Below are positions 5,506-22,533 of a stretch of 24,000 nt of DNA, piece by piece (the first letter of the stretch is position 1; every line of letters begins with the position of its first letter). This DNA is from an uncultured Iamiaceae bacterium (GTDB taxonomy: Bacteria; Actinomycetota; Acidimicrobiia; Acidimicrobiales; Acidimicrobilacustridaceae). The notes beneath the pieces are model-generated. The model had not been told where the DNA came from, did no database searches, and saw only the letters and a program-made list of their open reading frames with translations. The position numbers were made by a program, and so were the translations under genes. The stretch lies in the NCBI GenBank assembly GCA_963712065.1, contig CAVQGM010000002.1, positions 437,222 to 461,221 of the forward strand. Reading direction: 5' to 3'.

Positions 5506-5895
5506 TCAGGTCGTCTGCAGGATGAGCACGCTGCAGGGAGCCTTGTGGGCGATCGAGTTGGGCACGCTGCCGAGCACCCGGCCCTTGCCCTTCATGCCCT
5601 TGTTGCCGACGATGATCAGGTCGGCGTCGACCGCCTCGGCGACCTCGAGGATGCCGTCGACCGGGTCGCCCGACAGCACGTGGGAATGGGTCTTGACCGA
5701 GGTCTCGGCACCCAGCGAGTCGAGCCACGCCTCGCCGTGGCGGAGTGCCTCGGCCTCGGTGAGGTTCCCCTCGGCCTCGGGGTGCAGGACGAGGTAGACC
5801 TCGGCCCCGAACGGCGCCGCCAGCTCGAAAGCGCTGTGGGCGATGCTCCGTCCTCGCTCGATCTTCACCACTCCGACGACGATCCGCTCGAACAT
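5506..5895 (-). CDS. Universal stress protein (UspA family)
   Basis: 129 aa. MFERIVVGV..., with the C-terminal ATP-binding-type motif DADLIIVGNKGMKGKGRVLGSVPNSIAHKAPCSVLI. A GGGAGG SD lies about 10 nt upstream. It is a paralogue of 22135..22533. Confidence 0.9.
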   Translation of the reverse strand: MFERIVVGVVKIERGRSIAHSAFELAAPFGAEVYLVLHPEAEGNLTEAEALRHGEAWLDSLGAETSVKTHSHVLSGDPVDGILEVAEAVDADLIIVGNKGMKGKGRVLGSVPNSIAHKAPCSVLILQTT

Positions 5896-6198
5896 CCCCT
5901 CGCCACCTCCCGTTCGCCCTCCGGCCCCGCCACCATAGGCGTCCGGCCGCGGGAGCTCCCGTCCAGCGGCAACGGCGGCTTCGCCACCTCGTGGGGACCG
6001 GGTGCGGCCCGCGACCTCGTCGTGCGGGGACGGGGCGGTGTGCCCCAGGACGCCGAGGCGGTCGTGCTCAACTTCGTGGCCGACGTCGTGGGCTGGTACG
6101 GCTGAGCGTCCCGCGCCGTGCCGGGCTCGAGCATCAAATAGGAATAAATCGCACTAAACGCGGTTGTCGCCGGTGTCGCCGATGAAAGGACGACCGCC

Positions 6199-6408
6199 AT
6201 GAACCCCTCGCTCCGAGCGAAGCTGCCCTTCCTGATCGCGGGCTTCGCCTCGTTCCTCTTCTCCGTCTACCTGTACTTCGTACAGGGGGCCACGACCGCC
6301 GGGATCTTCGTGGGCCTCTGGGTGCCCTCCATCCACTCCCTCGGAACCCTCCTGCTCACCCCCGTCGACGGTGTGCGTCGCGATGCCCGGATGGACGTGA
6401 ACCGATGA
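6199..6408 (+). CDS. Small integral membrane protein (69 aa, two predicted TM helices), function unknown
   Basis: GC3 is high in this frame. An AAGGA SD precedes the ATG, and a rare AT-rich island (atcaaataggaataaatcgcactaaa, ~6133-6158) lies upstream. The hydrophobic segments are LPFLIAGFASFLFSVYLYFV and GIFVGLWVPSIHSLGTLLL. Confidence 0.65.
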   Translation: MNPSLRAKLPFLIAGFASFLFSVYLYFVQGATTAGIFVGLWVPSIHSLGTLLLTPVDGVRRDARMDVNR

Positions 6409-6584
6409 GCCAGACCGTGGTCTTCATCGTGGGCGCGATCGTGTTCGCCATCACCGTCTACGGCGCCATCATGGCCGGTGGCCTCGCGTTGACCCGACGC
6501 GAGCTCGAAGGCGACGAGGAGCTCCGGAGGCGTGTGGATCCGGGCCACGACGAGCCCACCGTGCCCTTCAAGGCCAAGTACTGA
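6405..6584 (+). CDS. Small membrane protein (59 aa, one TM helix plus charged tail), function unknown
   Basis: It is not in the track (under 60 aa). ATGA start/stop overlap with the preceding ORF suggests translational coupling. The product is MSQTVVFIVGAIVFAITVYGAIMAGGLALTRRELEGDEELRRRVDPGHDEPTVPFKAKY, with high GC3. Confidence 0.6.
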   Translation: MSQTVVFIVGAIVFAITVYGAIMAGGLALTRRELEGDEELRRRVDPGHDEPTVPFKAKY

Positions 6585-6838: not shown

Positions 6839-7807
6839 TCATGACCAGTCGGACACCGAGTGACGCCACCGGAACGCCACCGCCGCGTCGAGGGTGGCCG
6901 GGATGCCGGTCAGGACGCTGGGGTACGTGGGCTCGAGTCCGAGCTCCTTCCACAGGCGGGTGCCGGTCACCGGCAGGTCGAGGTTCCAGCCCCGGACGGT
7001 GTCGACGCTCACGAGGGTCGGGCCCACCCGGCCGAGCAGGGCGCCGCCCACGGCGGCGGCCGCCGTCGCGAGCGAGGCCGGGACCCGAAGGACGTGGACG
7101 CGGGGTGCGTACGAGCTGAGGACGTCGAAGAACTCGTTCCAGGTCACGTTCCGCTGGTCGCCGATCGGGGCCGTGCCCGTCCAGCGCTGCTGCGCCGCGG
7201 CCACGAGCACCGCGGCGGCGTCGTCGACGTGGAGCTGGGCGAAACGGTTGGTGCCGTGGCCGGGGAAGACGACCAGTCGGCGCCGGACCAGCCCGAACAG
7301 GATGCTCTGCGGGCCGTACACGTGGGGCAGCCGCACCGAGGCCACGGTGGGGCCCCCGGCGGACGCGACCTCGTCGAGCGCCGACTCCGCCGCCAGCTTC
7401 GCCCGCCCGTAGCCGAGGCTCGGGCGAGCAGGCGTGTGGTCGTCCACCGGGGCGGAGCCGTCGTGGACGAACATGCTCGACCCGAACACGAGGTGGGCCA
7501 CGCCCGCGTCCGCAGCTGCCTGCGCCAGGCGAGCGGTGCCGTCCACCAGGGTCGGGCGGAGCCGGTCGTAGGGCTCGAACGTGGCCCGCCCGGCGAGGTG
7601 GATGATGGTGTCGACGCCTTCGACCGCCCGTCGCACCGAGGGCGCCGACAGCAGATCACCGTGGACGGGGTCCACGTCGAGCGGGGCGAGCAGCGGCGCC
7701 CGCCCCTCGCGTCGCACCATGACCCTCGGCCGCACGCCCTCGGCGTTGAGACGGCGCACGACCTCGATGCCGATGAAGCCGGTCGCGCCCGTCACGAGGA
7801 TCTGCAC
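6839..7807 (-). CDS. NAD-dependent epimerase/dehydratase family protein (extended SDR)
   Basis: I trimmed track ORF 6839..8011 to the GTG at 7807 (VQILVTGATGFIG...). Motifs: GxxGxxG (TGATGFIG) and the catalytic YxxxK (YGRAK). The longer N-terminus would overlap the divergent gene that starts at 7875. Confidence 0.85.
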   Translation of the reverse strand: MQILVTGATGFIGIEVVRRLNAEGVRPRVMVRREGRAPLLAPLDVDPVHGDLLSAPSVRRAVEGVDTIIHLAGRATFEPYDRLRPTLVDGTARLAQAAADAGVAHLVFGSSMFVHDGSAPVDDHTPARPSLGYGRAKLAAESALDEVASAGGPTVASVRLPHVYGPQSILFGLVRRRLVVFPGHGTNRFAQLHVDDAAAVLVAAAQQRWTGTAPIGDQRNVTWNEFFDVLSSYAPRVHVLRVPASLATAAAAVGGALLGRVGPTLVSVDTVRGWNLDLPVTGTRLWKELGLEPTYPSVLTGIPATLDAAVAFRWRHSVSDWS

Positions 7808-7874
7808 GACCCCAGGGTGGCACGGGTCCGGGCCGAGCGGGCACTCGACCGGGATGCGTGGAACGATGCCGTCG

Positions 7875-9284
7875 ATGGTCGACGCAGTCGTCATCGGGTC
7901 GGGACCGAACGGGCTGACCGCGGCCGTGACCCTGGCGCGACACGGGCGGTCCGTCACCGTGCTCGAGGCGGCCGACACGATCGGCGGGGGCTGCCGCTCT
8001 GCGGCGCTCACCCTGCCCGGCTACGTGCACGACGTCGGCGCCGCCATCCACGCGCTCGGCGCCGGCTCCCCGACGATGACCGCGCTGCCGCTCGAGCGCC
8101 ACGGCCTCGGTTGGATCCACCCCGAGATCCCGCTCGCCCACCCCCTCGACGGCGGGCGGGCGGCGGTGCTGCACCGGGCGCTCGAGCGCACGACGGCCGG
8201 ACTCGGCGACGACGGGGCCGCCTGGCGGCGCCTCTTCGAGCCTCTGGTCGCGGACTGGGACCGCCTCCTGCCGGGGGTGCTGGGCTCGGTGCTGTCGCGG
8301 CCCCGCCACCCGCTCGCCATGGCCCGGTTCGGGCTCGTCGCGGTGCCGCCGGCGTCGCTGGTGGTGCGCCGATTCGGCTCCGAGGAGGCCGCCGCGCTGT
8401 TCGGCGGCTGCGCCGCCCACGGGTTCCTCCCGCCGAGCCACCTGCTCACCTCGGCGTTCGGGACCCTCCTCGTCCTCAGCGCCCACGTGGTCGGCTGGCC
8501 CGTGGCCGCCGGCGGCTCCCAGGCCATCCCCGACGCGCTCGCCGCGCACCTGCGGGAGCTGGGGGGCACCATCGAGACCGGCCGACGCGTCGAGCGACTC
8601 TCGGAGTTGCCTCCCCACCGGGTCGTGCTGTTCGACACGAACCCGGCCCAGGTCGCCTCGATCGCCGCCGATCGGTTGCCGGCGCGCTTCCGGCGTCGCC
8701 TGCAGGAGTTCCGTCACGGCCCGGCGGCGTTCAAGCTCGACTACGCCCTCGACTCACCGGTGCCGTGGACCAACGAGGCGTGCCGACGAGCGGGGACCGT
8801 GCACGTGGGCGGCGGCGTCGCCGAGATGGCGTCTGCCGAGCGCGACGTGGCTCGTGGGCGCATGCCCGACCGTCCGTTCGTGCTGGTGGCCCAGCAGAGC
8901 CTCGCCGATCCCTCCCGTGCCCCCGCCGGGAAGCACACGTTGTGGGCCTACGCCCACGTGCCGCCCGGCTACTCGGGCGACGCCACCGATGCCATCGAAC
9001 GCCAGTTGGAGCGGTTCGCCCCCGGGTTCCGGGATGTCGTCCTGGCCCGACACGTCACCTCCCCGGCCGACTTCGCCGCCTCCAACCCGAACCTCGTCGG
9101 GGGCGACATCGCCGGAGGGGCGCACGACGGCCTCCAGTTGGTGCTCCGGCCGACCATCCGCACCCACGGGACGCCCGACCCGAGCCTGCTGCTGTGCTCG
9201 GCCTCGACGCCGCCGGGCGGAGGCGTCCACGGCGCGTGCGGTGAGGCGGCGGCACGACGGGCCCTCGCCGGGCCGCTGCGATGA
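7875..9284 (+). CDS. NAD(P)/FAD-dependent oxidoreductase, phytoene desaturase (CrtI)-related family
   Basis: I trimmed track ORF 7581..9284 to the ATG at 7875 (MVDAVVIGSGPNGLTAAVTLARHGRSVTVLEAADTIGGG, a dinucleotide-binding fold). The C-terminal ..STPPGGGVHGACG.. is typical of COG1233-type CrtI-like enzymes. It is divergent from the epimerase across a 67-bp spacer. Confidence 0.85.
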   Translation: MVDAVVIGSGPNGLTAAVTLARHGRSVTVLEAADTIGGGCRSAALTLPGYVHDVGAAIHALGAGSPTMTALPLERHGLGWIHPEIPLAHPLDGGRAAVLHRALERTTAGLGDDGAAWRRLFEPLVADWDRLLPGVLGSVLSRPRHPLAMARFGLVAVPPASLVVRRFGSEEAAALFGGCAAHGFLPPSHLLTSAFGTLLVLSAHVVGWPVAAGGSQAIPDALAAHLRELGGTIETGRRVERLSELPPHRVVLFDTNPAQVASIAADRLPARFRRRLQEFRHGPAAFKLDYALDSPVPWTNEACRRAGTVHVGGGVAEMASAERDVARGRMPDRPFVLVAQQSLADPSRAPAGKHTLWAYAHVPPGYSGDATDAIERQLERFAPGFRDVVLARHVTSPADFAASNPNLVGGDIAGGAHDGLQLVLRPTIRTHGTPDPSLLLCSASTPPGGGVHGACGEAAARRALAGPLR

Positions 9285-9309
9285 GCGGTCGGCGGCACCC
9301 CCGGCGGGG

Positions 9310-10071
9310 TCAGTCGGCCAGGGTGCCGGCGTAGACCTGCCAGGCGAGGGCGCTCTTGGCCACCAGACTGAGCACGAGATACACCTTCTCACCGAACAGG
9401 TAGTCGGCGAATCGTCCTCGGCGCCGGTACTGCAGCCACTGGTTGAGGGCGAAGCAGTTGAACAGCAGGAACAGCGAGACGAAGATCCCGTAGACGAACC
9501 CGGGAACGCCGTCGCCTTCCTGTTGCGAGGTGAGCAACGCGATCCCGATCGCGACCCATGGCACGATGCCGACGAGGCACCCGAACACGAACGGCCACCA
9601 GTCGACACGGCCGTCGCGGCCGTTGACCCGCTCCATCAGCAGCCCGAACAGGATCATCGCGGCGTTGACGGCGAACAGCCCGATGAGGGCGTAGAGGTTG
9701 GTGATGCCGGGCAGCATCGCGATGAGCACGATCATCACCGAGGCGCTGATCGAGTACTCGATCCATCGGGCGTAGTTGACGCCACGCCCGAGATGGCGCT
9801 CGTACCAGGAGACGATGCCCGGAGTGGCCATCAGCAGGTGGTCCACCGCCGCCAGGAACAGGAACAGGGCGATCGCCAGGGAGAACCGGACGTCGAAGAA
9901 GACCTTCTCGACGGTCAGCGCCGTGCCGGGCGGGCCGGTCTGGACCGGCGCCACCACGGGGATGGCGAAGTCGTTGCTGATCGCCACGATGACGACCGCC
10001 TGGACCAGGTGCACCACGCCGACACCGGTGTTCCAGCGGCGCAGCGACCTCAGCTGAGGGTCGTCGGACAC
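9310..10071 (-). CDS. Heliorhodopsin (7-TM retinal protein with inverted topology)
   Basis: 253 aa with a GTG start. Block-by-block similarity to heliorhodopsin 48C12 as I recall it: LRRWN..GVVHLVQ, NDFAIP, GPPGT, RWIEYSISASVMIVLIA, FAVNAAMILFG, GIVPW, VPGFVYGIFVSLFLLFNCFALNQWLQY, YLVLSLVAKSALAWQVYAGTL. The putative Schiff-base Lys is K239, the counterion is E105, and the conserved His residues are H21 and H78. Confidence 0.9.
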   Translation of the reverse strand: MSDDPQLRSLRRWNTGVGVVHLVQAVVIVAISNDFAIPVVAPVQTGPPGTALTVEKVFFDVRFSLAIALFLFLAAVDHLLMATPGIVSWYERHLGRGVNYARWIEYSISASVMIVLIAMLPGITNLYALIGLFAVNAAMILFGLLMERVNGRDGRVDWWPFVFGCLVGIVPWVAIGIALLTSQQEGDGVPGFVYGIFVSLFLLFNCFALNQWLQYRRRGRFADYLFGEKVYLVLSLVAKSALAWQVYAGTLAD

Positions 10072-10176
10072 GACGACGACGCTAGCCGAGGCGCCTCACC
10101 GGGATCGGAGCGCCGGGGTCGGTCCGGTGCCGTCGGGTGGGGTCGGCCGGAGCATCGCCGGTACGGTCCGCGCACG

Positions 10177-10932
10177 ATGATCGGCCCATCGGAGCTGCCC
10201 ATTCCCTCCCCGACGGGGGAGCCCGTCAGGCGTGCGGTCATGGTCCAGCACTGGGCCGATGTGGTCTTCGCCCACTGGCGCTACGACCCCGACGTCGTGC
10301 AGCGACTGCTCCCCCCGGGCGTGTCCGTCGACGTGCACGACGGCTCGGCCTGGGTGGCGCTGGTGCCGTTCCGCATGGAGCGTCTCGGGCTCCCCGGCCT
10401 GGCGCCGCTGCCGTTCGTCGGCCGGTTCCCCGAGATCAACGTACGGACCTACGTCCTCGCCGGAGGCCGGCGCGGGGTCTGGTTCTTCTCGCTCGACGTC
10501 GACCTGTTCCTGCCGACGATCGTGGCCCGCACCGTCTACCGCCTGCCGTACTGCTACGGGCGCACCGACCACGTCCGGGTCGCCGATGTCGTCACGACAC
10601 GGGTCGAGCGCCGCTGGCCCCGCTCGACGCTCCCGGCGGCGGCCGCGATGGTCGTGCGCACCGGCGCGGCGATCGAGCCCGACGACACCGTCCAGTTCCT
10701 GACCTCGCGATGGGGACTCGTGTCCGCCGGTCGGCGAGGCGGGCTCCGGTACGCCGCGGTGAGCCATCCGCGATGGCCCCTCCACCACGCCGAGGTGGTG
10801 CACCTCGACGAGGGGCTCGTCACCGCTGCCGGCCTTCCCGCGCCGCACGGCCCACCACATCTGTTGTGGTCGCCCGGCGTCGACGTGCGGGTCGGGCCGC
10901 CCCGGCGCATCGCCGGCCGCTCCGGGCGCTGA
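10177..10932 (+). CDS. DUF2071 (YqjF-like) domain protein
   Basis: These are the last 251 codons of track ORF 8854..10932, starting at the ATG at 10177 (MIGPSELPIPSPTGEPVRRAVMVQHWADVVFAHWRYDP..). The pattern W.D..F.HW......LLP.G...D...G.AWV.LVPF.M and ..FPE.NVRTYV.. is typical of DUF2071. It is divergent from the heliorhodopsin gene across a 105-bp spacer. Confidence 0.75.
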   Translation: MIGPSELPIPSPTGEPVRRAVMVQHWADVVFAHWRYDPDVVQRLLPPGVSVDVHDGSAWVALVPFRMERLGLPGLAPLPFVGRFPEINVRTYVLAGGRRGVWFFSLDVDLFLPTIVARTVYRLPYCYGRTDHVRVADVVTTRVERRWPRSTLPAAAAMVVRTGAAIEPDDTVQFLTSRWGLVSAGRRGGLRYAAVSHPRWPLHHAEVVHLDEGLVTAAGLPAPHGPPHLLWSPGVDVRVGPPRRIAGRSGR

Positions 10933-10958
10933 ACGACGCACGCGGGGCGGGACGCGGC

Positions 10959-11723
10959 TCAGCGCGCACGGGCGAGCCGCTGGAGCTCGTCGAGGGTGGC
11001 GCCGGGCCGACCGACGAGCGAGCGGACGCCTTCGCGCTCGAGGCGCGTCGCGGTCTCCGCCGCCGAGCGCGCCGCGTCGGTCGTGGTGACCGTGAGGACG
11101 GCGAGGTCGACGTCGTGCTCGTGGCAGAACCGGACGAACTCGTCGCCGGGCATGTCGGCGCCCAGGTGGTGCACCCGCCAGTTGTCCTCGCGCAGCGCGG
11201 CGGCGGCCATGGCGGTGGGGAGGGCATGGCGGTCGCCCGACATCGCGGCGACGACGGCGGTGCCCCGGCGTCGTCCCCGCGGCGTCGGGTGGTGGTCGCC
11301 GAGGATCTGCTGGACGATGGCCGAGGCGCGGTGCTCGACCCAGATGGGCAGTCGGCCGGCGTGCCACTCGGCGCCGATGTGGCGCAGCGCCGGGACCAGC
11401 AGCTCCTGGGCGACGGTCGTGAGCGGCACCCCGTCGTCGATCAGTGCGCCTGCCAGCCGTCGGGCGGTGCGCTCGTCACCGTCCACGAGCGCGTCGAGCA
11501 TCTGTCGGCCGAGCGGCTCGAACCCGCCGCGGGGCCGGCGCGGCCGGGGTCTGACGGGAGCCGAGCGGCGGGCTCCGAACGCGTCGACGGCGTTCGGGTC
11601 CAACAGGTAGCGACCCCCGACCATCTCGGCGGGGAGCCGTCCCGAGCGGACCCACTTGTAGGCGGTCTGGTAGTGGACGCCGAGCCGGTCGGCCGCCGTC
11701 TGCAGATCGATCCGAGGGTCCAC
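10959..11723 (-). CDS. CarH/LitR-like cobalamin-binding transcriptional regulator (excisionase/MerR-type HTH plus B12-binding domain)
   Basis: 254 aa. The N-terminal HTH is DLQTAADRLGVHYQTAYKWVRSGRLPAEMVGGRYLLD. The four-helix-bundle signature Wx9EH is present as W120-HAGRLPIWV-E130-H131. The lower-axial-ligand motif is VVAAMSGDRHALPTAMAAAALRE (H165), followed by a Rossmann-like HHLGADMP. Confidence 0.8.
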   Translation of the reverse strand: MDPRIDLQTAADRLGVHYQTAYKWVRSGRLPAEMVGGRYLLDPNAVDAFGARRSAPVRPRPRRPRGGFEPLGRQMLDALVDGDERTARRLAGALIDDGVPLTTVAQELLVPALRHIGAEWHAGRLPIWVEHRASAIVQQILGDHHPTPRGRRRGTAVVAAMSGDRHALPTAMAAAALREDNWRVHHLGADMPGDEFVRFCHEHDVDLAVLTVTTTDAARSAAETATRLEREGVRSLVGRPGATLDELQRLARAR

Positions 11724-11789
11724 GACCCGAGGATACGGCAGGACGCAAATGCGCGCTGAAGTGGGCTAAGGGCGCCCGGACGCGGCTTG

Positions 11790-11975
11790 CTCGGGGAGAC
11801 GTCTTCGTTCGTGGCCGACGGGCGGCCCTTCAACGAGGGCTACCGGTACGTGGACTGGCTCCTCACCGTGCTGCTGCTGCTCGCCGCGCTGGTGCTCGTG
11901 CTCAATCTGGCGAAGGCACCACCCGGAACCTGCTGGTCGAGCTGACCGTCGCCGTGCCCGCGCTAGGGTTCCGGG
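11790..11975 (+). pseudogene. Relic of a type-1 (xanthorhodopsin/actinorhodopsin-like) microbial rhodopsin: helix C and part of helix D only
   Basis: In nominally intergenic DNA, one frame (11817 onward) reads DGRPFNEGYRYVDWLLTVLLLLAALVLVLNLAK with ~100% GC3. This matches the helix-C hallmark FNDAYRYVDWLLTVPLL.VELVLV of xanthorhodopsin and Gloeobacter rhodopsin, but the Pro and the donor Glu are lost. It hits a stop at 11941-11943. After a frameshift it continues TRNLLVELTVAVPALGF, which resembles helix D (R.LL.KLTVA). Helices A, B and E-G, including the Schiff-base Lys, are missing. Confidence 0.6.
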
Positions 11976-11995
11976 ACTCCGTGGAAGGGACCCTC

Positions 11996-12757
11996 ATGCG
12001 TCGTGCCGTCATCGCGTTCTTCGCCGTTGCGCTGCTGGCGATCGGGCTCGCGCCCGCGGCGGGGGCGGGTGGCAGCAGCTTCAGCGTCACCCCGAACCCG
12101 GCGGCACCCGGCGACGAGATCACCTTCGTCGGCACCTGCCTCCCGGGCGACGAAGTGCTGTTCGGGTTCGGCACCACCGAGGCCCCCGAGGTGTCCGACG
12201 AGACGACGGCCGACGGGTCCGGCAACTGGACCGGGTCGCTGGTGATCCCCGCCGACACGGAGCCCGGTGACTACGTCGTCGGCGCGGAGTGCGAGTCCGA
12301 CGAGACCGTCTCGTTCCAGGACTTCCGGGTCGTCGCCGCAGGGCGCATCGTCCTCTTGAAGACGGTGAGCACCACGCCGGACGAGTGTGGCACCGAGCGT
12401 GAGATCGTCGTCCCCAAGGGCACGAAGGTCTACTACTGCTACGCGGTGACCAACGAGACCGAGTTCACGCTCGACGTCCACACCCTCACCGACGACGAGC
12501 TCGGCACCATCTTCACCGACCTCGAGTACGACCTGGCTCCCGGGGCGAGCGTCGACACGGTGGCCGCCGGCGTGGAGGCTTCCGCCGTGATCGACGAGAC
12601 CACCATCAACGGCGCGGTCTGGACGGCGGAGGGGGTCATCCCCGGTGGGCCGGCGGTCAGCTACGAGGCCGATGCCGGGGCCGTGGTGACGGTGGCCGCC
12701 ACCCCGACGACGGCCGCCGCGGCGGCCGCCGCGGTGACGCCCCGCTTCACCGGCTGA
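11996..12757 (+). CDS. Secreted protein with an Ig-like N-domain and a DUF11/TIGR01451-like conserved repeat domain
   Basis: I trimmed track ORF 11954..12757 to M15 (MRRAVIAFFAVALLAIGLAPAAGAGG, a signal peptide) with a GGAAGGG SD 6-7 nt upstream. The repeat-domain pattern is KVYYCYAVTNETEFTLDVHTLTDDELG...LAPGAS. The C-terminus is Ala/Thr-rich. Confidence 0.75.
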   Translation: MRRAVIAFFAVALLAIGLAPAAGAGGSSFSVTPNPAAPGDEITFVGTCLPGDEVLFGFGTTEAPEVSDETTADGSGNWTGSLVIPADTEPGDYVVGAECESDETVSFQDFRVVAAGRIVLLKTVSTTPDECGTEREIVVPKGTKVYYCYAVTNETEFTLDVHTLTDDELGTIFTDLEYDLAPGASVDTVAAGVEASAVIDETTINGAVWTAEGVIPGGPAVSYEADAGAVVTVAATPTTAAAAAAAVTPRFTG

Positions 12758-21851: not shown

Positions 21852-22065
21852 TCAACGGATCGGACAGACGATGCGGGTGCGCCACGTGCTCGGATCGGGC
21901 TCGGCCGAGGGGTCCGACAGGTAGCACTCCCACATGGGCCCGACGCTCCAGGGCCGCGCGCAGGTCGACCAGCGGGCTGAAGGCATCACCGAGGGTCTGC
22001 GTCGGATGGACCCCGTCGATCCACTGGCCGGCGACGAAGCCGACGAACCGCTCGCTCGTACTCAT
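21852..22065 (-). pseudogene. GyrI-like (SHS2) small-molecule-binding domain fragment with a frameshift
   Basis: Frame A from the ATG at 22065 reads MSTSERFVGFVAGQWIDGVHPTQTLGDAFSPLVDLRAALERRAHVG with high GC3, then degenerates. The +1 frame continues GPMWECYLSDPSAEPDPSTWRTRIVCPIR* with its stop at 21852-21854. This is the classic GyrI-like C-terminal pattern (P.wE.Y..dP......p..w.T.i..Pi). It is about half the length of a normal GyrI-like protein. Confidence 0.5.
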
Positions 22066-22134
22066 GCGCGCACGCTGACCCGCGGCCTAGGGTGCAGCTC
22101 GCGAGGCCCACCTGGTCGTCCCACGGGAGGCGTG

Positions 22135-22533
22135 ATGTACGAACGGATCGTGGTCGGGGTGTCCCAGACCGAGACCGCCCGCCGGGCGGTGGACCACGCC
22201 GCCGCGCTGGCCGAGATGGTGGGGGCCGAGCTGCACCTCGTGCTGTCGTTCGACCCGTACTGGGACCGCATCGAGCCGACCACCCTGCCGGCGACGGCCA
22301 AGGCCAAGGCCTACCTCGAGGAGCTGGCCGCCGAGCTGCCGGTCGAGGCGGTGGCCCACCCGGTGCCCGGCGACCCCGACGAGGGGATCCTGCGCACCGC
22401 CGAGGAGCTCGACGCCGACCTCATCGTCGTCGGCAACAAGGGCATGAGGGGCGCCGGCCGCGTCCTCGGCAGCGTCCCCAACTCGATCGCCCACCACGCC
22501 CACTGCTCGGTGCTGATCGTCGCCACGACCTGA
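22135..22533 (+). CDS. Universal stress protein (UspA family)
   Basis: I trimmed track ORF 21934..22533 to M68 (MYERIVVGV...) with a GGGAGG SD 5 nt upstream. The C-terminal motif is DADLIVVGNKGMRGAGRVLGSVPNSIAHHAHCSVLIV. It is a paralogue of 5506..5895. Confidence 0.9.
   Translation: MYERIVVGVSQTETARRAVDHAAALAEMVGAELHLVLSFDPYWDRIEPTTLPATAKAKAYLEELAAELPVEAVAHPVPGDPDEGILRTAEELDADLIVVGNKGMRGAGRVLGSVPNSIAHHAHCSVLIVATT

Follow-up and report, generated by a model that had tools for sequence, protein, structure and literature searches.

The 24,000-nucleotide stretch of DNA analysed here, which we call the window, comes from an uncultured Iamiaceae bacterium (GenBank assembly GCA_963712065.1, contig CAVQGM010000002.1, positions 437,222 to 461,221 of the forward strand). 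Its G+C content is about 72%, and its proteins are nearest to those of Acidimicrobiia, mostly Ilumatobacteraceae. Our subject is the region that holds a heliorhodopsin (HeR) gene, a gene for a regulator that combines a helix-turn-helix (HTH) domain of the excisionase type with B12-binding domains, the relic of a rhodopsin proton pump and a pair of small membrane-protein genes that we named sm1 and sm2. The features of this region are given below by coordinates and strand; the scores of the operator-like sites come from a position weight matrix (PWM) described further on, and related loci are cited by their L numbers.

6128..6171, reverse strand: operator-like site upstream of sm1, with TTTAGT, TTTATT and TTTGAT repeats at 10-bp spacing in an AT-rich island (PWM score 19.7)
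6199..6408, forward strand: sm1, 69 aa, two predicted transmembrane helices, no named family
6405..6584, forward strand: sm2, 59 aa, one predicted transmembrane helix, overlapping sm1 by 4 nt
6839..7807, reverse strand: SDR, NAD-dependent epimerase/dehydratase family, 322 aa (Pfam Epimerase, E=3.8e-30)
7866..9284, forward strand: flavoprotein of the CrtI/amine-oxidase superfamily (Pfam Amino_oxidase, E=6e-16)
9310..10071, reverse strand: HeR, apparently functional (Pfam PF18761, E=7.5e-97)
10177..10932, forward strand: DUF2071 protein, divergent from HeR and convergent with the regulator (Pfam DUF2071, E=1.4e-63)
10959..11723, reverse strand: regulator with HTH_17 (excisionase-type), B12-binding_2 and B12-binding domains (Pfam) and a CarH-type photoreceptor signature
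11730..11773, reverse strand: putative truncated operator before the regulator, with canonical repeats TTAGC and TCAGC and a degenerate TTTGC (PWM score 12.4)
about 11810..11954, forward strand: xanthorhodopsin-like proton-pump relic, helix C and part of helix D (DNA match to intact pumps)

The N-terminus of the regulator matches Pfam HTH_17 and the NCBIfam excisionase domain TIGR01764 (43.5 bits, cut-off 28.8), and no MerR domain was matched in the protein by the Pfam and NCBIfam profiles. The signature of light-responsive B12 domains has been described as GxxW, EH, GxxH and GxxxP (PMC11796333), and the regulator carries all of it as GAEW(H), VEH, GDRH and GADMP, including the Wx9EH motif and the lower axial His that the original prediction from the sequence had proposed for this gene. 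A His directly follows the signature Trp, at the position discussed for H132 of TtCarH in the same paper. Across 22 family members the signature positions show little or no variation, with W120, E130, H131, H166, G117, G188 and P192 strictly conserved. The closest solved structures are 8j2w/8j2x (2e-20) and 8jbs (8e-12), followed by CarH 5c8a; the top ones are B12 domains with a green-light response established by experiment (PMC11796333). The NCBIfam CarH equivalog NF052513 gives 58.1 bits against a cut-off of 400 and covers residues 69-251 only, that is, the B12 part. As this lies far under the cut-off, we do not name the protein CarH but a CarH-like photoreceptor regulator whose DNA-binding head is different. 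The dN/dS of 0.18 against its 87%-identical homolog in L091 indicates that the regulator is under purifying selection. In L091 (100-1194), a gene for a glutamate-receptor-like ligand-gated potassium channel ends 33 bp before this closest homolog, on the same strand, and there is no pump.

On the other side of the regulator start lies the relic. Its match to Pfam Bac_rhodopsin (24.3 bits) falls just below the gathering cut-off of 24.6 and involves profile positions 57-92 only. When the region was compared by blastn with all the loci fetched, 11810-11954 matched 29 intact pump genes with 77-86% identity and E values down to 7e-37, nearly all alignments containing a single 1-nt gap. The fragment is thus a genuine piece of a pump gene, divergent from the regulator and close to the 11790-11975 at which the original prediction had placed it. 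Measured against the L089 pump, roughly 190 nt are missing from the 5' side and 400 nt from the 3' side, so that about 145 nt are left, and the helix of the Schiff-base lysine is absent. The helix-C motif YRYVDWLLTV is kept. The damage within the fragment consists of a 1-nt deletion that shifts the reading frame, a Pro to Leu change (TVPLLL to TVLLLL) and the replacement of the Glu of the DTE motif by Ala, with its D and T conserved (LLLAALV versus LLLAELV in L089). An extra stretch at 11774-11804 aligned loosely to pump helix A/B and was rejected as untrustworthy in such G+C-rich DNA. After the frameshift, the relic shares its frame with the next gene, which encodes a secreted DUF7507-like protein (11954-12757); the listed GTG start of that gene falls inside the relic, and the ATG at 11996, before the signal-peptide-like stretch MRRAVIAFFAVALLAIGLAPAAG, is the likelier start.

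An intact version of the arrangement is found in Ilumatobacter (L089), where a 253-aa pump of the xanthorhodopsin family (psXR, 2.5e-76; Gloeobacter rhodopsin, GR, 2e-72; XR, 2e-63) is divergent from a 69%-identical regulator at a distance of 47 bp, and the regulator is followed by DUF2071. Aligned to this locus, the window retains the 5' end of the regulator, part of the spacer and pump codons ~64-120. For a wider view, the regulator alignment was used in a metagenome scan that yielded 80 loci, to which loci from exact look-ups were added, leaving 74 regulators (that of the window included) after dereplication at 97%. Enough upstream sequence was available in 66 relatives, and 24 of them have an intact pump divergent from and immediately upstream of the regulator, at the position of the relic; the other upstream neighbours include sm1 in seven and a divergent HeR in two. 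In a neighbor-joining tree, the regulator of the window falls inside a clade of mostly pump-linked members, with the pump-less L091 as its sister. These data support the regulator and a xanthorhodopsin-like pump as an ancestral divergent pair, and the simplest reading is that the pump was lost in the small lineage of the window while the B12 photoreceptor was kept, in agreement with what had been predicted.

The spacers between pump and regulator contain three to four direct repeats with a 10-bp period and a TTAGY core, visible in the raw spacers, as in L095 (ACTTAGCGAC TTTTAGTTCT ATTTAGCTAC CTTCAGTCTC). A PWM was trained on 20 unique spacers and tested on 55 regulators with unique upstream sequences outside the training set. 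A score of at least 20 was reached within 200 nt upstream by 37 of these 55 regulators, compared with 2 of 1364 control windows from the same loci, and the predicted operator ends at a fixed distance, with a median of 34 nt, before the regulator start codon. The background of the PWM was the G+C content of the window, which produces many false matches in low-G+C loci such as L070, and its use was restricted to comparisons within a locus and relative to the regulator. For the window, the null consisted of 200 Markov-1 (dinucleotide-frequency) randomisations with a maximal score of 8.6, and a scan of both strands found only two matches above it, the site before sm1 and the site before the regulator. 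The latter, 11730-11773, is collinear with the operator of L089, and its proximal repeats survive; it probably represents the remains of the regulator's own operator, whose distal repeat or repeats appear to have been lost together with the 5' end of the pump.

The top PWM match of the whole window is the other site, located 28-70 nt upstream of sm1. Roughly 19 of the 28 sm1 genes in related loci have an operator-like site at the same place and in the same orientation, even some that lie 1-4 kb away from the regulator. The original prediction missed the sm1/sm2 pair, which carries the operator-like site. More than 1100 homologs of sm1 exist with 70-90% identity, all annotated as hypothetical and none with a Pfam domain, and a search of Pfam with sm1 and sm2 at E up to 10 returned noise only. 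In related loci, sm1 repeatedly adjoins the B12 regulator and/or HeR, and it is accompanied by sm2 in L088, L100, L111, L114, L115, L117, L153, L164 and L174. The gene divergent from sm1 (5506-5895) encodes a universal stress protein, and the operator-like site lies 233-276 nt upstream of it; a second universal stress protein gene is at 21934-22533.

We then propose, with a probability of about 0.6, that the locus is what is left of a light-response island found repeatedly in Acidimicrobiia, with a B12 repressor, a lost pump and sm1/sm2 as a remaining target. The core of the island would be the repressor, with its excisionase-type HTH and a CarH-type adenosyl-B12 photoreceptor domain. By analogy with CarH, the regulator would bind adenosyl-B12 and oligomerise in the dark, and the oligomer would occupy the three to four tandem 10-bp repeats lying some 34 nt ahead of the regulator's start codon, such that both the promoter of the regulator and that of the divergent xanthorhodopsin-like pump would be shut. 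Light would break the Co-C bond and disassemble the oligomer, and regulator and pump would then be expressed. In the window, the pump was destroyed by the 5' and 3' deletions, the frameshift and the loss of the proton-donor Glu, the 5' deletion taking away the distal operator repeat or repeats as well. The regulator likely persists in control of other targets, of which sm1/sm2 would be the only one visible in the window; it was probably kept because it still serves this pair and perhaps targets elsewhere in the genome. HeR, DUF2071 and SDR are recurrent neighbours of the regulator module.

Several points weigh against this proposal. The predicted circuit of regulator and operator is deduced from sequence, and its DNA-binding geometry is assumed, given that the HTH is not of the MerR type used by CarH. 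The site before sm1 holds only one canonical repeat, and paralogous regulators in the same genome may serve sm1 instead. The site at 11730-11773 scores only 3.1 in the correct register, with two good repeats left, and its counterparts in the closest relatives, L091 and L086, are degenerate as well; with the operator eroded in all three, autoregulation may already be lost here. Finally, the two genes, HeR and regulator, are not found together in L081, whose HeR is closest to that of the window, or in L091, which has the nearest regulator.

The place of HeR in this picture deserves separate treatment. The protein matches Pfam PF18761 with 323.9 bits (cut-off 26.7) over profile positions 1-242 of 242, and NCBIfam NF038020 with 310 bits (cut-off 100). 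Its nearest solved relative is the 48C12 HeR (E=2.5e-70), and the RW(I/V)EYS and SLVAKSALAWQ motifs are kept in the alignment of the two. Heliorhodopsins have a Schiff-base Lys in transmembrane helix 7, a Glu counter-ion in helix 3 and conserved His residues in helices 1 and 2; K239, E105, H21 and H78 of the window protein align with the corresponding 48C12 motifs and are invariant in 20 relatives. With a dN/dS of 0.19 against the 87%-identical HeR of L081, the gene looks functional, as had been claimed.

It had also been suggested that HeR and its neighbours form one functional unit. For this to be right, HeR would have to belong to the regulon of the B12 regulator, through a site that the PWM does not see or indirectly, for example via sm1/sm2 or a second regulator, and we consider this doubtful. 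The neighbourhood itself is not random. Among 80 species-level genomes examined with 10-kb flanks around HeR, 16 have a homolog of the regulator nearby, and in all 16 it lies within 3.5 kb, even though 60% of the flanking sequence is beyond that distance (binomial P=4.8e-7). The B12 regulators beside HeR are of the HTH_17 type in Acidimicrobiia and Chloroflexia and of the MerR type in Solirubrobacterales, most of them carrying Wx9EH, so that two different DNA-binding heads stand beside HeR in different lineages, which points to separate recruitment events. HeR and regulator are transcribed divergently in L114 and L115, on either side of the operator; in L003, L006 and L023, sm1 precedes HeR by 220-270 bp in the same orientation; and the regulator follows HeR by 30-80 bp in L048, L076 and L080. 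Against control by the regulator, no operator was detected in the spacer between HeR and DUF2071 in the window, where the best PWM score, -18.5, is matched or exceeded in 210 of 475 windows. Only 3 of 38 HeR upstream regions in relatives reach a score of 10, and two of these are cases of HeR divergent from the regulator, where the site is shared. Moreover, the window HeR is monocistronic and convergent with its downstream neighbour. The tie of HeR to the regulator is therefore one of proximity, with control unproven, and the idea of a single functional unit found no support as far as HeR is concerned.

Some of these loci have features of their own. In the three Chloroflexia loci (L048, L076 and L080; ~10760-11500), the HeR stop is followed, in the same orientation, by a Wx9EH-bearing regulator of the HTH_17-B12 type, in what looks like an HeR-regulator operon. 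The B12 regulators that accompany HeR in L023, L034, L035 and L045 (Solirubrobacterales and relatives) are MerR-type proteins of the classical kind, resembling CarH/LitR. In L172 (the same as L094), L097 and L099, a second, distant HeR (49% identical to that of the window) is located 0.7-2 kb from an intact pump-regulator pair, and since these loci hold all three, pump, regulator and HeR are able to share one locus.

The proximity of HeR to B12 regulators is already published and was largely anticipated by Chazan et al. 2021 (bioRxiv 10.1101/2021.02.16.431466), who describe cobalamin-binding proteins as above-background neighbours of HeRs and DTE pumps; in Actinobacteria, PF02310 is near 18 of 876 HeRs and HTH_17 near 9 of 876, and their Dataset S3 gives the genome-wide neighbourhood enrichment for the regulator-HeR pair. 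Compared with those figures, the rate of B12 regulators is about 10 times higher in the HeR clade sampled here (16/80). The published work is statistical only and contains no operator or regulon; sm1/sm2 and DUF2071 are not named among the notable neighbours in its main text, and DUF2071 was not found in the searched part of its table.

A different view is that function links only the regulator and the dead pump, and that HeR, DUF2071, SDR, the CrtI-like gene and sm1/sm2 came together in a fluid, rearrangement-prone region. Gene order is indeed different in every relative. In L081, which holds the closest HeR with context, no regulator is nearby; SDR lies directly downstream of HeR, the upstream side retains a DUF2071 remnant, and the place of the window's DUF2071 and regulator genes is taken by a toxin-antitoxin pair, FUR and KatG. 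In L091, as mentioned, the channel gene is upstream of the regulator. The CrtI-like flavoprotein gene is another example: in L081, HeR and SDR are 63 bp apart, whereas the window has a 1.45-kb flavoprotein gene in the opposite orientation in that gap, a single-gene insertion or deletion. However, pump, HeR, DUF2071, sm1/sm2 and regulator re-associate in many orders, in Acidimicrobiia and beyond, and the operator of the regulator is also found before sm1, neither of which is expected by chance. We regard a purely accidental assembly as unlikely.

The flavoprotein calls for comment, as the original prediction counted it as the fourth of the light-related elements and read the whole as an ancestral light-regulated rhodopsin/carotenoid locus. 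Three of the four elements stand, namely HeR, regulator and relic; the flavoprotein has only a superfamily-level match, with nothing to mark it as light-related. Flavoprotein and SDR genes both exist, arranged as described, but assignment of the former to the CrtI family fails (63.9 bits against crtI_fam TIGR02734, cut-off 238.1; 102 bits against CrtO, cut-off 1000), only Pfam Amino_oxidase being passed. Solved structures match the protein only in the N-terminal Rossmann fold. The boundaries are clean in the comparison of 7808-9309 with L081:4634-4695, the flavoprotein start being about 58 bp from the SDR start on opposite strands, and the 50 bp upstream of SDR are conserved between the window and L081. 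No comparable flavoprotein gene was found near HeR or regulator in ~170 loci, where the CrtI-like matches are short and at the Rossmann level, and crt or blh families were found neither in the 24-kb window nor within 10 kb of the intact pumps. On the basis of the failed family cut-offs, the indel in L081 and the missing crt/blh neighbours, the carotenoid link was rejected, and the CrtI-like gene appears to be a passenger. What remains of the predicted ancestral locus is the pump-regulator pair; of the proposed gene linkages, that of HeR and regulator proved non-random and that of the CrtI-like gene did not appear.

An SDR ortholog with 84% identity is directly downstream of HeR in L081-L085, and the start codon of the window gene was fixed by alignment. 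The DUF2071 protein matches its profile (PF09844) with 214.8 bits (cut-off 27) over positions 2-212 of 212; the only structural hint is a weak match to the MppR/ADC fold. DUF2071 comes after the regulator in 6 of 68 relatives, with an operon-like arrangement in L089, L100, L102, L111 and L117, and beside HeR in L008, L149 and, as a remnant, L081-L085. This remnant (~3530-3870 in L081) is about 250 bp long and 75% identical, has a PhdYeFM/PIN toxin-antitoxin pair, FUR and a catalase-peroxidase as its neighbours, and is another decayed member of the same island.

A bolder extension of our proposal is that the HTH_17-B12 photoreceptor defines a conserved light regulon of monoderm bacteria, with the very highly conserved sm1/sm2 pair and an ADC-fold DUF2071 enzyme as accessory factors of rhodopsins. 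We hold this to be improbable. If it were true, they could supply the chromophore in lineages that lack blh, or provide HeR with a membrane partner, and the placement of HeR beside the module would reflect a shared pathway and not a shared habitat.

It is very improbable that the B12 domain senses cobalamin supply or redox in place of light, or that the regulator is an orphan decaying after the loss of its target: many B12-binding domains are not photoreceptors (PMC11796333) and the operator before the regulator is eroding, as noted above, but all four elements of the light-response signature and the His beside the Trp are present, the partners are light-driven proteins, and the dN/dS of the regulator speaks against decay.

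The other genes of the window encode a Baeyer-Villiger-type monooxygenase, an alcohol dehydrogenase, the two universal stress proteins, GlgX, a HAD/HerA fusion, a PD40 propeller, a dienelactone hydrolase and a beta-lactamase-fold protein, and no light- or carotenoid-related families were found among these remaining genes of the 24 kb. A promoter scan of the window found none, and a terminator scan gave one weak hairpin within the sm1 operator and one within DUF2071; in an actinobacterium with 72% G+C, both scans are uninformative.

Taken with its operator and targets, the regulator family is a new variation on the CarH/LitR theme known from Thermus, Myxococcus, Bacillus and Streptomyces. Like these proteins, the window regulator has a C-terminal B12 domain, Wx9EH, the lower-ligand His and the His beside the Trp, and is a predicted dark repressor; as in CarH/LitR, the tandem direct-repeat operator of the family is just upstream of the regulator gene and is shared with a divergent gene, which in CarH/LitR is light-induced. 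Unlike them, it has an excisionase/HTH_17 N-terminus instead of MerR, and the predicted targets of its family are a rhodopsin pump and small membrane proteins instead of carotenoid genes. The repeats of the Thermus CarH operator are 11 bp, whereas those of this family have a 10-bp period and the TTAGY core. The B12 domains collected with SignatureFinder, CtMerR and the photocobilins among them, share GxxW, EH, GxxH and GxxxP with the window regulator, and HTH fusions were noted among those 1561 candidate photoreceptors (PMC11796333); that paper does not describe the HTH_17 family found here, nor the operator and rhodopsin targets of this family, and the window regulator has no biliverdin domain. 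As for the relic, it retains the YRYVDWLLTV of the xanthorhodopsin-family DTE pumps (acidirhodopsin, actinorhodopsin, Gloeobacter rhodopsin) and differs from them in being short, frameshifted and devoid of the donor Glu and the Schiff-base lysine helix.

For HeR, the neighbourhood is real and recurrent, without a sign of direct control here, such that the locus alone reveals no HeR partner. The analysis flags the unannotated sm1/sm2 and DUF2071 as candidates for a light regulon, and the predicted operator sequence is directly usable in gel shifts and reporters. In addition, optogenetics might profit from a B12 photoswitch whose DNA-binding domain and operator are different. In the proposed circuit, a green-light B12 photoreceptor, chemically unrelated to rhodopsin, would gate a rhodopsin gene, and this offers a concrete, testable account of how non-phototrophic Actinomycetota may switch on a rhodopsin pump.

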